A stretch of 64,000 bases of DNA. Source: Escherichia coli. GTDB taxonomy: Bacteria > Pseudomonadota > Gammaproteobacteria > Enterobacterales > Enterobacteriaceae. The stretch lies in assembly GCF_045037415.1 (NCBI RefSeq), contig NZ_CP173438.1. The stretch is one strand, 5' to 3'. Positions 39,001 to 45,000 of this stretch are shown here, piece by piece. Numbering within the stretch: position 1 is the stretch's first letter; every line of letters starts with the position of its first letter. The position numbers are program-made.

Positions 39001-42000
39001 ATGAACCCGGTGTGGCCTTCACCTCCACCCGTGCGGCACGGGAATGGCTGATTCTGAACATGGCGGGACTGGAGCGTGAAGAATTCCGGGTGCTGTATCT
39101 GAACAACCAGAATAAGCTGATTGCCGGTGAAACCCTCTTCACCGGCACCATCAACCGCACGGAAGTCCATCCCCGGGAAGTGATTAAACGCGCCCTGTAC
39201 CACAATGCCGCTGCCGTGGTACTGGCGCACAATCACCCGTCCGGTGAAGTCACACCCAGCAAGGCAGACCGCCTTATCACGGAACGTCTGGTACAGGCAC
39301 TGGGCCTGGTGGATATCCGGGTGCCGGACCATCTGATAGTCGGTGGCAGCCAGGTTTTCTCCTTTGCGGAACACGGTCTGCTTTAACCCGTCACCGTTAC
39401 AACCACATCATACCTGTTTTCGCTTTTATCTTCTGTCTTCAGAGGTATCACACTATGAAAATCATCACCCGTGGTGAAGCCATGCGTATTCACCAACAAC
39501 ATCCGGCATCCCGTCTTTTTCCGTTCTGTACCGGCAAATACCGCTGGCACGGCAGCACTGAAGCGTATACCGGTCGTGAAGTGCAGGATATTCCCGGTGT
39601 GCTGGCTGTGTTTGCAGAACGCCGTAAAGACAGTTTTGGCCCGTATGTCCGGCTGATGAGCGTCACCCTGAACTGAGTCAGGAAGGGCATTCTGATGAGC
39701 CGAATTATCGCCACCATCGAACCATTCTTAACTGATTTCTGTGAGGACTTTATCGTGTCAGACACACTGCCCGGGACAACGCATCCCGACGACAATCACG
39801 ACCGCCCCTGGTGGGGGCTGCCCTGCACCGTGACGCCCTGTTTCGGGGCACGTCTGGTGCAGGAGGGTAACCGGTTGCATTACCTTGCCGACCGTGCCGG
39901 TATCAGAGGCCGGTTCAGCGACGCGGATGCATACCACCTGGACCAGGCCTTTCCGCTGCTGATGAAACAACTGGAACTCATGCTCACCAGCGGTGAACTG
40001 AATCCCCGCCATCAGCATACCATCACACTGTATGCGAAAGGGCTGACCTGCGAAGCCGATACCCTTGGCAGTTGTGGTTACGTTTATCTGGCTGTTTATC
40101 CGACACCGGCAGCGCCCGCAATCACCGTATAACCCCGGATATCTCCCCTTTATCACCACCTGTTACAGAGAACTTAAGATGAATACATTACCCGACACTC
40201 ACGTACGGGAGGCATCGGGCTGCCCGTCTCCCGTCACCATCTGGCAGACACTGCTCACCCGACTGCTGGACCAGCACTATGGCCTCACGCTGAATGACAC
40301 ACCGTTCGCTGATGAACGTGTGATTGAGCAGCATATTGAGGCAGGGATTTCACTGTGTGACGCGGTGAACTTTCTCGTTGAAAAATACGCGCTGGTACGT
40401 ACCGACCAGCCGGGATTCAGCGCAGGAGCCCCGTCGCAGTTAATCAACAGCATTGATATTCTCCGGGCTCGCAGGGCAACCGGCCTGATGACCCGGAACA
40501 ATTACAGAATGGTAAATAACATTACCCAGGGCAAGCATCCGGAGGCAAAACAATGAAACTGGCCCTGACGCTGGAAGCCGACAGCGTTAACGTGCAGGCA
40601 CTGAACATGGGGCGCATTGTCGTTGACGTCGATGGTGTTAATCTCAGTGAACTGATTAACAAGGTCTCTGAAAACGGTTATTTACTCCGCGTGGTCGATA
40701 AATCCGACCAACACGCAACCAGTACACCACCACCGTTAACAACCCTTACCTGCATACGTTGCAGCACCGCACATATCACGGAAACGGACAACGCCTGGCT
40801 GTACTCGCTGTCACACCAGACTAATGACGACGGCGAATCAGAATGGATTCATTTTACAGGCAGCGGCTATCTGTTACGTACCGATGCGTGGTCATACCCG
40901 GTTCTGCGGCTTAAGCGCCTGGGCCTGTCAAAAACGTTCCGTTGTCTGGTTGTCACACTTACCCGACGTTATGGCGTCAGTCTCATTCATCTGGATGCCA
41001 GCGCTGAATGCCTGCCGGGTTTACCCACTTTCAACTGGTAACCAGGAACAACATGAAATCATTAACCACGGAAACAGCACTGGATATTCTGATTGCGTGG
41101 CTGCAGGACAATATCGACTGTGAATCCGGGATTATCTTCGACAACGATGAGGATAAGACGGATTCAGCAGCACTGTTGCCCTGCATCGAACAGGCCCGGG
41201 AGGATGTCCGTGCTGTTCGTCATCTGCAGCTTCTGCACCAGAACCGGTGAATATCACTCACCATACTTCATTCCCCTGACGCCAGCCTGAATACAGCTGG
41301 CGTTTTCGTCTATAAACCAAAAGGAAAACCGATAATGTCAGACATCACAATCTCCCGTCCGGAAGTGGTCACCGGGCATACGGACGTTATCTGCTCCACC
41401 AGTATCCGACACGTTGTGACGGTACGGAATGCAGCACTGCAACAAACCGAAACGCTTATCCGGCAACTGGCAGAAATCTCAGTGCTGACAGCAGGCATTG
41501 GCGGCAAAACCGCCCTGGACTGGGCGATGAAACAGAATTTTCGCTGTGGCTGCTGGCTGATGGAAAAACCGGAAGCAGCAATGAAAGCCATCACCCGCAA
41601 TCTCGATCGAGAAATCTGGCGTGACCTGATGCAACGTTCAGGGATGCTTTCCTTAATGGATGCACAGGCCCGTGATACATGGTACCGATCACTGGAATAT
41701 GATAATTTTCCGGAAATCAGTGAAGCGAACATTCTGAGCACATTTGAACAACTGCACCAGAACATAGATGAAGTGTTTGAGCGAGGGGTGATCAACGTCT
41801 TCAGGGGACTGAACTGGAATTACAAAACTAATTGCCCCTGTAAATTTGGCAGTAAAATTATCGTCAACAATCTGGTGAGATGGGACCGGTGGGGATTTCA
41901 TCTTATCACCGGGCAACAGGCAGATCGACTTGCCGACCTGGAAAGAATGCTGTATTTGTTCAGCGGCAAACCGATTCCTGACAACCGGGAAAACATAACC

Positions 42001-45000
42001 ATTCATCTGGATGATCACATCCACTCAGTATTAGACGTCAACTAGTTTTGCCGACTCGCGCCAACTATACTGGCCGCACCCTTCAGTGCGACATCAAGTC
42101 GCGCTTGTTACTGCCTTCGCTGTCTTTTTCCTGTAGCTTTCACCTTTCAGTTCGAACATATATCCGTGATGGATCAGCCGGTCTGCCGCCGCCACCGCCA
42201 TAGTCTCATCCACGAAGATGCTGCCCCACATGCTGAACGGATGGTTACTGGTTATCACCAGGCTCCCACGTTCATAGCGATGCGCTATTAACTCGAACAG
42301 TACTCCCGTTTCGGCGCTGTCGCGTTTGACATAGCCAAGATCATCCACCACTATCACCCGGTAGCGATCCAGTTTCAGTAGCAGCTCATTCAGTTTCAAC
42401 TGCGCTCTGGCTTTACGTAGTTCCTGCAACAACTCTCCTGCGCTGTAGAACCGGGCCCGGTAGCCCTGGCCTACTACGCCATCCACGATCGCTGCCGCCA
42501 GATGGCTTTTCCCCAACCCGCTGGCTCCGAACAGCAGAACGTTTTCTCCTGCATCAACCCAGTCTGTCGTTTCACAGAGTTGCCGGAACTGAGCTCCATT
42601 CAGTTCCGGCACCTGACTGAAGTCGTATTCGCTTAGCGTTTTGGCAACTGGCAACCGGGCCTCCTTTTTATAACGACGCAGTTTTTCACTCTCGCGCCAC
42701 AGGAGTTCTTCATTGCATAGCGTCAGAAGATAGCGCGATGGTGTCCAGCCTTCTGCCAGTGCTCGTTTTTCCAGAGCGTGCCATTCAGCTCCAACTCGTG
42801 TCAGGCGTAGTTTACGCAGGCTGCGTTCAAGGTGATGGATATTGCTCACTGCGAACCTCCCTTGCCACGCAGTAGTTGCTCATAACTGCTCAGGTTATGC
42901 TGTTTCACATTGACTACCGGCAACGCCTTTTCCTTTATACCCAGGAAGCGCATCAGCCGGTGCAGATCCACGTTTCCCGGGGTATTCAGCATCTGCTCCA
43001 TACCTTTTGCCACGACTGAGATATCGTCGTATCCTGCAGCCAGTTTCAGAGCATGTACCATCAGCCTGCCTGCCATGTCGGGTTCCAGATGATTACATAA
43101 GCGACGCCACAGCCTCCGCCATTCATCGTCTGGCAGGATGTCATTTCTCAGCGTTGCATGGCAGAACGCACCGGGCTTTTTTGCCAGACTGTCGATCACA
43201 TGTCGGAAGTCGATACGACGGGCCCGCGTCTTCCCTTTTTCTGGTCTGACACGTGGGCAGCTCATGACCTCGCTGCTGCCAACGTAACGGCTCAGACGAT
43301 CGTCCCATAACCGGACCCGTAACAGTTGACCTACAAGCCGGGAAGGTACGCTGTAGACGACGTGCTTCACATTGATGGTACTGCTGCGGCTAACCCTCAC
43401 AGTCAGCTCATCATAGTCAGCACTGCGACGAAGCGGCAGCGGTTTCAGATGAAGACGTTCTTCCTTGACCAGATCCTGATTGTTACGGTTGTGCCGCATA
43501 ACCTGCTGAGTGATGAAGGCCTGATATTCTTCTATGGTGCTGAAGTCGTTACTGCCCCGCAGTATCAGCGCCTGACAGATACGCCTTTTCAGATGTCCGT
43601 GGGCACTTTCAACCGAGCCATTTTCGTGGCCCCGACCGGCATTATTGTGTACGCCCTGCATTCCGTAGTGCTGACAGAGAGCAGCATAACGCTCAGTCAG
43701 CTCGCGGCGTCCATCTTCGCCCTGTTGTTTCCATGCTGCCCTCAGGCTGTCCGTTTTATGTTCTACCGGCACTCCGCCCAGTTGTCCGAGGGCTTCCTGC
43801 AGACCTTCAGCCAGAGCAGAGAAGCTCTCACCACCCAGCACAACCCGCATCCAGCTCCAGTGGCTCCATTCCAGACGGAAGTGATACAACTTATGCGCCA
43901 ACAACTTACCGGCGATGGTGACAACTACACCTTTCAGTTCAGTAAAGTCCGACAGACCTCGCAGACCGGGCTGATGTCGCTGGCGGAACATGACCTCCTG
44001 CTCTGCACCATACTGTAGCTTCCATTCGCGGACCCGCCGTTGCATTGTTCTTCGAAGGCTGTTGGGGTACTGGCCGGGATATTTATCCTGTAGCATCTCC
44101 AGCAGAGTTGTTGGTGTCAGAGCCGGCCTCTCTTTCAACAGAGGAACAAGCATGCTGTCCCACACAGCTTCCAGAGGATCTTTGCGTGTGCGCCAGTGCC
44201 GAACACTGTTTTTTGCCCACTCTCCTTTTTCGATCCGACGACCAGAACGGACTGAGATACCAGCCTTCATGGCCGAGATATGCTGAGTTATACCTTTCTT
44301 ACGCTGAGTCATATAGTAACTGACCTGAGAAGTATTGAGCGTCACGCCATTTCCTGTTGGATCATGTAAATGACACTCAGGTTACAAAACCGGCCAGAAT
44401 AATCGGCGCCAGGCGGACTGAGTTATTGTCGTCTCATACACTCAGTTCAGGGTAAAGCGTGCTATGAAGATGAGATGTTCAGCATCAGATACTTTAAGAA
44501 GGGCTCCGCGCACATCACGTTCAGGAAACCAGAGCTGGTTGACAGATTGAATGATATTATTGCGAAATACTATCCGGAAACCTTATCGCCCGTTTAACCC
44601 AAAGCACAGACTCAGTACATACACAAAAACATTCTGATAAATCTGGCGTCATTCAGAGCAAAAAAACATGTTTTCCAGATTATTTGTAAAAAAACATACT
44701 CCAGCTATGGTGGCAGGTAGTCTGATATTTCTGTTCATTATTCTGCTGACATTTTTCTGGAAAAAAGCAGAGCTGGTGAATGACAGCCAGATCAGAGTTA
44801 ATTTCGCACTTGGCTATATAGAAAACATTCTCAATCAGAACAACAGCATCAGCCAGGAAGCAGAACATTTGCTTCTGAATAACTGTAACGCAGATACTCA
44901 GCATGAATTAAGCAATCTGCTGCTGAAACGCCCACAACTTCGTGCACTGAGCCTGGCAAGACAAGAGGCTGTATTTTGTAGCACCCACCCCGGTTTACCT

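Follow-up and report, generated by a model that had tools for sequence, protein, structure and literature searches.

A single copy of ISEc10 has almost certainly inserted itself by transposition into a DUF4942 gene of 281 codons, at codon 232, in this Escherichia coli of the extraintestinal pathogenic type. The gene is the last but one of a tRNA-Phe (pheU) genomic island, which adjoins the core gene cadC, and the cadCBA genes follow. All coordinates (Table 1) refer to the window, i.e. the whole 64-kb stretch of DNA that was analysed. By the mechanism of the IS21 family, which we infer to have operated here, the DDE transposase IstA, helped by the AAA+ ATPase IstB that delivers the target DNA, would have made staggered cuts, in this case 7 bp apart, and their repair would have duplicated the sequence CACTCAG. 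The gene product would now be at most 236 aa long (232 native residues plus LDVN) and would lack the conserved C-terminal 49 residues, and the orphan 3' fragment would be deprived of any upstream start in its native context. The insertion had been noticed in a first-pass annotation of the window, and that reading is confirmed as essentially right, with small corrections to the coordinates.

Table 1. Features of the ISEc10 insertion and of the adjoining island end (window coordinates).
Feature	Position	Strand	Evidence
DUF4942 gene 5' part, codons 1-231 and first base of codon 232	41335..42028	+	ORF list; identical to nt 1-694 of the intact S88 gene
Chimeric truncated ORF, 236 aa (232 native residues + LDVN), stop from IS terminus	41335..42045	+	ORF list; PGAP CDS WP_001621817.1 in ST131
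Target-site duplication, copy 1, CACTCAG	42022..42028		Empty site in S88 reads ATCCACTCAGTTCAGGG, single copy
ISEc10 (IS21 family), complete, 2410 bp	42029..44438	-	100% full-length identity to PGAP-annotated ISEc10 copies in many E. coli genomes
IRR, terminal inverted repeat downstream of istB, starts TATTAGACG	42029..42076		Repeat search; register confirmed
istB, AAA+ helper ATPase, 251 aa	42094..42849	-	PF01695, 209 bits; NF038214, 266.7 bits; WP_000065240.1 in RefSeq
istA, transposase, 499 aa	42846..44345	-	NF033546 transpos_IS21, 227.1 bits; WP_029700729.1 in RefSeq
IRL, terminal inverted repeat upstream of istA, finishes CGTCTCATA	44391..44438		Repeat search; copy comparison
Target-site duplication, copy 2, CACTCAG	44439..44445		Copy comparison; S88 empty site
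DUF4942 gene 3' part, rest of codon 232 to codon 281 and stop	44446..44597	+	S88 comparison; PGAP partial pseudogene 'DUF4942 ... missing N-terminus' in ST131
CSS-motif and EAL domain protein, 511 aa, last island gene, 70 bp downstream of split gene	44668..46203	+	Pfam EAL 206 bits, CSS-motif 34 bits; WP_000492897.1
Island right boundary (attR), TTCGATTCCGAGTCCGGCACCA, copy of tRNA-Phe 3' end, 22 nt	46369..46390	+	Start of match to island-free genomes

The ISEc10 element

The window contains one ISEc10 copy only, a complete element whose assignment to the IS21 family in the first-pass annotation is borne out by both of its proteins. IstA matches the NCBIfam profile NF033546 (transpos_IS21) over positions 2-293 of 294, as an IS21-type DDE transposase, with a score above the cutoff of 160 bits. 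IstB exceeds the cutoff of 200 bits for NF038214 (IS21_help_AAA) and also matches the Pfam family IstB_IS21. The istB gene lies directly downstream of istA on the same strand, and the istA stop codon overlaps the istB GTG start in the sequence GTGA (42846-42849, minus strand).

IS21 (istA/istB, from the Pseudomonas plasmid R68.45) is the prototype of the family and itself generates a 4-bp target-site duplication (TSD). ISEc10 resembles it in having two genes with an istA stop/istB start overlap, a DDE transposase with an AAA+ helper, imperfect inverted repeats and a short TSD. Unlike IS21, it has a TSD of 6-7 bp and TA...TA termini, and the similarity between the two elements is known at the level of protein families. 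The name ISEc10 is indirectly supported: the element is probably ISEc10 in view of the RefSeq/PGAP labels ('IS21-like element ISEc10 family') of copies that are 100% identical. One paper gives a length of 2,530 bp for ISEc10 inserted in a different strain, compared with 2410 bp here.

Ends of the element and target-site duplication

The limits of the element were set by alignment with five other ISEc10 copies located in unrelated flanks. All five begin and finish with the same terminal sequences (Table 1), so that the termini are conserved in six copies including that of the window. The join suggested earlier implied limits of about 42049-44445; the actual start is 20 nt before the one assumed there. 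The minus-strand orientation of istA and istB places IRL, on the upstream side of istA, at 44438 and IRR at 42029, and the earlier labels 'right end' and 'left end' are correct in the IS convention. The inverted-repeat arms found by the repeat search (42028-42076 and 44391-44439) are 49 nt long, extend 1 nt past each end of the element and are imperfect (71% complementary). A search of the IS ends for multiple subterminal IstA-binding repeats gave nothing convincing beyond these inverted repeats.

ISEc10 is flanked on both sides by the 7-bp sequence CACTCAG, which occurs once at the empty site of E. coli S88. An 8-bp duplication, CACTCAGT, with the element at 42030-44438, was considered and dropped: the eighth base, the T at 42029 on the left side, is part of the IS, as it is in all five aligned copies, and the TSD is therefore 7 bp. 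IS21-family TSDs are short, 4-8 bp, and those at three other ISEc10 sites (GCTGTG, CCTCAC and ATCTGGC) are of 6-7 bp. The outermost bases of ISEc10 are TAT...ATA in 6/6 copies, TG/CA lying 2 nt further in, and only at IRL; IS21-family termini are generally 5'-TG...CA-3' (ISfinder family description), a criterion that is not absolute.

Reconstruction of the split gene

The 236-aa ORF reported in the first-pass annotation exists, and its start coincides with the PGAP start in the ST131 record (L001 8306). It had been described as stopping exactly at the end of the IS, but it runs 17 nt into the element (native residues ending in HSV, followed by LDVN) and terminates at an IS-borne TAG (42043-45). 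The second part of the gene had been described correctly: a frame ending in ...FRKPELVDRLNDIIAKYYPETLSPV is open again from 44446, the first base past the second TSD copy, in phase with the 5' part.

Removal in silico of ISEc10 and one TSD copy (joining 41335-42028 to 44446-44597) restores an 846-nt ORF encoding a single protein of 281 aa. This protein matches the Pfam DUF4942 family (PF13708) with 229.4 bits (gathering threshold 25 bits) along the full profile (1-190 of 190), residues 87-276 being aligned in one stretch across the junction. It is identical at 281/281 aa to the intact annotated protein WP_001280513.1 of E. coli S88 and GPEC102, and the gene is identical to that of S88 at 845/846 nt, the only difference being a synonymous one at 44547, in the 3' part. 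An intact homologue of the rebuilt gene therefore exists, and the two halves match not different genes but one and the same S88 allele (694/694 nt for the 5' part and 151/152 nt for the 3' part). Taken literally, the join proposed earlier (41335-42048 plus 44446-44597) would carry 20 nt of the IS together with the stop codon. When extended to 1246 nt, the joined sequence has uninterrupted counterparts in public genomes that agree with it at 1245/1246 nt, far beyond chance, and it is at least 99% identical to sequences in 186 records.

Island context and the uninterrupted locus

The first-pass annotation had placed the gene on an island, and it is indeed the penultimate gene before the 22-nt repeat of the tRNA-Phe 3' end. 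The match of island-free genomes begins at the first base of this repeat (query position 2224), over their annotated tRNA-Phe gene, and similarity to the pheV island of S88 stops at its last base, 46390. The repeat, which lacks one G, was missed by an exact and a 3-mismatch search for the tRNA-Phe 3' end and was found by a shorter exact match. There are no tRNA genes within the 64-kb window, and the proximal end of the island must therefore lie outside it. The island end is a mosaic, in that positions 34500-39000 are only 96-97% identical to the ST131 record and to S88/GPEC102, while 39000-53400 are near-identical.

In GPEC102 the same locus carries the DUF4942 gene (WP_001280513.1), the EAL gene, an integrase remnant and cadCBA in uninterrupted form, at 99.9% identity. 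The uninterrupted DUF4942-EAL-attR-cadC arrangement is present in at least 58 complete genomes among the best 60 records, GPEC102 included, with a top identity of 99.9%. Since the gene is whole at this locus in GPEC102 and at least 57 others, the insertion arose later than the island module. The earlier claim that the insertion postdates the island holds to this extent; the same genomes do not distinguish an event in the host lineage from inheritance together with the island. The intact gene has the same neighbourhood in S88 (at pheV) and in GPEC102 (at pheU), namely CbeA/CbtA, DUF5983, DUF957, DUF4942 and EAL. In S88, however, the uninterrupted gene and its module are located at pheV beside the kps capsule genes, not at pheU beside cadC.

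Spread of the insertion

Among 5426 complete E. coli genomes, identical junctions were found in 156 (left) and 163 (right), O25b:H4-ST131 included, i.e. in about 160 genomes. ISEc10 is usually present as a single copy in the genomes that carry the junctions, and the carriers listed are largely labelled O25b:H4/ST131. We infer that one ancestral insertion event lies behind all carriers. The RefSeq records of O25b:H4-ST131 and relatives (NZ_CP015085.1; S65EC, NZ_CP036245.1) have the same junctions, 100% identical on both sides, and the ST131 records also share the IstA, IstB and truncated DUF4942 proteins (accessions in Table 1) and the neighbouring EAL gene, integrase remnant and cadCBA. By comparison with NZ_CP015085.1, the island in the window differs upstream of ~39000, where it has the mosaic stretch (34500-39000), an inverted cut/BMC block and segments without a match; the window thus represents a different strain, but with the same insertion.

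The ISEc10::DUF4942 insertion already has annotations in about 160 public E. coli genomes, those of ST131 by PGAP among them. The PGAP annotation is inconsistent, as it presents the 5' fragment (WP_001621817.1) as an ordinary protein and reserves the pseudogene label for the 3' fragment. As a clean presence/absence marker found in about 3% of complete E. coli genomes, the pandemic ST131 clone among them, the insertion could serve to mark lineages; beyond correct annotation it matters little.

Alternative explanations

Nothing that was found contradicts the insertion itself. Its timing is less certain, and there is a minor but appreciable chance that the insertion predates the arrival of the island, or of the island end, in the host lineage, the IS-bearing allele having been acquired ready-made by horizontal transfer or recombination. 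The mosaic structure of the island end indicates that recombination is common in this region, the same 3' module occupies pheV in S88 and pheU in the window, and the split and intact alleles are just one synonymous change apart. Against this, the 99.9%-identical uninterrupted copies at the same pheU/cadC locus provide the simplest ancestor, and the restriction of the carriers listed largely to one kind of strain fits vertical inheritance after one event in situ. An origin of the two fragments from different DUF4942 paralogues, joined by recombination between two ISEc10 copies, can be discounted almost entirely. E. coli genomes do contain several DUF4942 paralogues (a median of 2 places per genome and a maximum of 10), and in NCTC 86 an ISEc10 copy has no TSD and ~260 bp have been lost beside a DUF4942 paralogue, so that such rearrangements do occur. 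However, the paralogues are only 80-95% identical and a chimera would be visible; it is refuted here by the perfect TSD and by the identity of both halves to the same intact allele.

Transposition of ISEc10 into an intact gene at this locus thus remains the preferred reading, and the truncation has likely led to loss of DUF4942 function, because the 49 missing C-terminal residues include two of the four positions that are invariant in the family. Homologues in 2160 clusters at 50% identity are mostly aligned through residue ~278, and nearly all family members reach the equivalent of this position. The lost segment contains H254 and N267 (two of only four invariant columns) and F257, P275 and L278 (at least 90% conserved), and in the AF2 model (pLDDT 90) it supplies three beta-strands of the predicted alpha/beta part together with its final helix. 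It is quite improbable that the 236-aa protein is functional or altered in function, the insertion being a modification instead of an inactivation, even though the truncated ORF retains the native start, 82% of the length, the long helical N-terminal part and the invariant W95 and D201, is not flagged as a pseudogene by PGAP, and is stably retained in ~160 genomes. The absence of these conserved C-terminal elements argues against it, as do independent hits and deletions in the same gene, which suggest that it is dispensable: at E. coli island tips the DUF4942 gene has suffered at least 3 separate disruptions (ISEc10 here, ISEc10 plus a deletion in NCTC 86, and ISSfl8 in eco-241). Counter-selection of the gene in ExPEC lineages, or a hot spot for IS landing at the island tip, seems an improbable cause; the alternative is a series of neutral hits in a dispensable gene. 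The insertion would take away the DUF4942 protein, for which the only leads are the label 'DNA methyltransferase' of phrog_6263 and the fusions with an MTS methyltransferase domain that occur in P0096 and P0107.

Possible effect on the EAL gene

If transcription reads through from the island module into the EAL gene at all, it would be broken by 2.4 kb of oppositely oriented IS, and expression of this adjoining island-borne gene of the c-di-GMP phosphodiesterase type may change. Such a polar effect is speculative, because a scan of the stretch from the IS to the EAL gene yielded no promoter- or terminator-like site; around the junctions such sites are no more frequent than in shuffled sequence.

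ISEc10 insertions at other loci

New ISEc10 insertions next to lpp have been selected in CFT073 with a globomycin analogue (PMC7482066), and ISEc10 has been described in the afa/dr promoter of ST131 strain S103EC (PMC8764528). These two cases show that ISEc10 is a mobile, active element. Besides the afa promoter, it has been reported in GI-pheU of ST131 (PMC8764528, PMC8386418). The CFT073 and S103EC cases involve the same-named element in B2 ExPEC strains, and in both expression was altered. In contrast to the present insertion, which is intragenic, they are regulatory, lying up- or downstream of the affected gene, and their phenotypes were measured.

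Disruption of a DUF4942 gene by ISEc10

The split gene encodes a DUF4942 protein, and the interrupting element belongs to the IS21 family, as the first-pass annotation had proposed. Its 499-aa protein matches the NCBIfam model transpos_IS21 (227 bits, cutoff 160), and its 251-aa protein matches IS21_help_AAA (267 bits, cutoff 200) as well as Pfam IstB_IS21. The istA stop overlaps the GTG start of istB (GTGA), and the pair is flanked by an imperfect inverted repeat of ~49 nt, 71% complementary. Copies that are 100% identical over all 2409 query nt (42030-44438) are named by PGAP "IS21-like element ISEc10 family transposase" or "helper ATPase IstB". 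ISEc10 has been described before and is mobile: in CFT073, selection yielded new insertions beside lpp (PMC7482066), and the element is reported from the afa/dr promoter of S103EC, an ST131 strain, and listed among GI-pheU mobile elements (PMC8764528, PMC8386418). One of the latter two papers gives an insertion size of 2,530 bp, compared with the 2410 bp delimited here.

Five copies with unrelated flanks (NCTC 86 chromosome, S10EC, KSEC38, RM8082, and plasmid pCFSAN004178P_01), 98.5-99.9% identical to that in the window, were used for comparison. All five start with TATTAGACG and end with CGTCTCATA, independent of the flanking base, and because these termini are constant the element is placed at 42029-44438. 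An initial reading, with an 8-bp repeat CACTCAGT around 42030-44438, was ruled out by the same termini. The target-site duplication (TSD), which had been left to be identified, is the 7-bp CACTCAG, found on both sides at 42022-42028 and 44439-44445. Three of the comparison copies have duplications of 6-7 bp (GCTGTG, CCTCAC, and ATCTGGC), a length within the range of IS21-family elements. Since istA lies on the minus strand, the 44438 end is IRL and the 42029 end IRR, and the earlier labels "left end" and "right end" were correct. In S10EC and KSEC38, ISEc10 is situated at the pheV island end, with kpsF on one side and an IS110 remnant on the other, and istB of both copies has an internal stop (pseudo in PGAP); at this same site the TSD of KSEC38 is shortened (CTGGC versus ATCTGGC).

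Features of the interrupted gene, the element and the island end (window coordinates unless stated)
Feature	Position	Strand	Length	Remarks
Truncated ORF	41335-42045	+	236 aa	ordinary CDS WP_001621817.1 in PGAP
istB ORF	42094-42849	-	251 aa	
istA ORF	42846-44345	-	499 aa	
Short open frame ending ...FRKPELVDRLNDIIAKYYPETLSPV*	stop at 44597	+		beyond the istA/istB ORFs
CSS-motif/EAL protein gene	44668-46203		511 aa	last island gene, downstream of the split gene
tRNA-Phe 3'-end copy (attR)	46369-46390		22 nt	after the EAL gene
5' part in an ST131 record with the identical insertion	8306-9016 of that record (window 41335-42045)			normal accession WP_001621817.1
3' part in the same record	11407-11568 of that record (window 44436-44597)			pseudogene

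When 41335-42028 is joined to 44446-44597, a single frame of 846 nt results, encoding 281 aa. Against Pfam DUF4942 (PF13708) the reconstructed protein scores 229 bits, covering profile positions 1-190 of 190 in a single stretch spanning the junction. It is identical at 281/281 aa to the intact protein of strain S88 (WP_001280513.1), and 845 of 846 nt agree, the sole difference (window 44547) being synonymous. The empty site of S88 reads ...ATCCACTCAGTTCAGGG..., with CACTCAG present once. A joined query of 1246 nt found 186 records at 99% identity or more and 3580 at 80% coverage or more, and all matching records are annotated with DUF4942 followed by an EAL-domain gene. Thus, an intact homologue exists and both halves match this same gene, contrary to the two outcomes named beforehand as refuting. 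The observation is confirmed and its interpretation supported, with corrected coordinates. The downstream frame resumes at exactly 44446. Rather than ending precisely at the IS boundary, the 236-aa ORF reads 17 nt into IRR, so that LDVN and the TAG stop are supplied by the element. The join suggested earlier (41335-42048 with 44446-44597) was right in its second part, while its first part adds 20 nt of IS containing a stop codon.

This textbook IS insertion can be found annotated in ~160 public genomes already. Using 300-nt queries centred on each junction (coverage of at least 80%), the left junction was found in 156 and the right in 163 of 5426 genomes, with 100% identity among the examples listed. 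These examples include strains labelled O25b:H4 or O25b:H4-ST131, as well as S65EC, and ISEc10 is single-copy in most of them. RefSeq annotation of the two parts is inconsistent, as only the 3' part is marked as a partial pseudogene.

Island context and timing

The split gene is the penultimate gene of a genomic island, and upstream of it comes the module conserved in CP4-like islands of E. coli (antirestriction protein, JAB/RadC, DUF987, CbeA/CbtA toxin-antitoxin, DUF5983, DUF957). The CSS-motif/EAL protein WP_000492897.1 ends both the pheV island of S88 and the pheU island of the window. Island-free genomes start matching at the attR repeat, over annotated tRNA-Phe, and similarity to the S88 island stops there; beyond lie an integrase remnant and cadCBA. 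On this coincidence, and with cadCBA beyond, the island is assigned to pheU, the tRNA gene and proximal island end falling outside the 64-kb window.

A query comprising the excised junction, EAL gene, attR, and cadC start is matched uninterrupted (99.9%) by strain GPEC102, in which intact WP_001280513.1 is annotated; among the best 60 records, at least 58 give a one-piece match. Over 12.3 kb to the right of the insertion, GPEC102 and the window share 99.96% identity. The presence of the pre-insertion state at the same chromosomal locus shows that this island module predates the insertion. Recombination is frequent nearby, since 34500-39000 is mosaic between strains, and the IS-bearing island end might have been acquired ready-made, the event having occurred outside the present host lineage; we consider this unlikely. 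Clustered mismatches in 34500-39000, which looks like a recombination mosaic within the island, number 206 against the ST131 record and ~200 against S88 and GPEC102; from ~39000 on, the conserved 3' module into which ISEc10 inserted is near-identical.

Elsewhere in the window, block 9234-23798, which holds choline TMA-lyase cutC/cutD and microcompartment genes, is inverted relative to the O25b:H4 ST131 chromosome NZ_CP015085.1, and identity to it reaches only 98.5% across 1-5345, the two-partner secretion ShlB/FHA region. In the stretches compared with that chromosome, ~5345-9234 and 31881-34504 had no match.

Consequences for the DUF4942 protein and possible effect on its neighbour

Searching 1.84 billion representative proteins with HMMER (E <= 0.001) yielded DUF4942 matches in 2160 clusters. 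Most homologues are stand-alone proteins of 260-290 aa, aligned to query residue ~278. Only four columns are invariant among 78 aligned full-length members (W95, D201, H254, N267), and the 49 residues removed by the IS include two of these, along with F257, P275, and L278 (at least 90% conserved). In an AlphaFold2 model (mean pLDDT 90.1, pTM 0.82) the protein has an N-terminal long-helix bundle and a small alpha/beta part, and the lost segment comprises beta-strands 237-239, 243-247, and 253-257 and the last helix, 260-273. Because conserved residues and these predicted elements fall in the lost segment, truncation has probably abolished function.

Searches with the protein gave no match in PDB sequences, no matching PADLOC or NCBIfam model, and no significant Foldseek neighbour among solved structures (best E = 0.35). 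Hints at function come only from a PHROG labelled "DNA methyltransferase", of which profile positions 81-285 of 548 match, and from two 468-aa homologues with a fused C-terminal MTS (SAM-methyltransferase) domain.

The EAL gene starts 70 bp past the DUF4942 stop, and simple scans between the IS and this gene found no promoter-like or terminator-like site. Speculatively, the EAL gene may have depended on read-through that is now interrupted by the IS. The usual EAL-domain sequence is E(G/A)VE(T/S); by eye, this region of its product reads AEVIETE, and its activity may be worth checking.

DUF4942 genes are disrupted in other strains. In NCTC 86 (NZ_OZ489144.2, 2701-5110), the ISEc10 copy, 99.9% identical to that in the window, occupies a paralogous island module, flanked on the left by the inside of a DUF957 gene and on the right by nt 56 of a DUF4942 paralogue. 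It has no TSD, and ~260 bp have been lost in a deletion next to the IS; a DUF4942 gene has thus been hit by ISEc10 a second time, independently. A third independent disruption is found in eco-241 (NZ_CP053662.1), where the DUF4942 gene at the same pheU/cadC locus is split by the IS110-like ISSfl8, according to its annotation.
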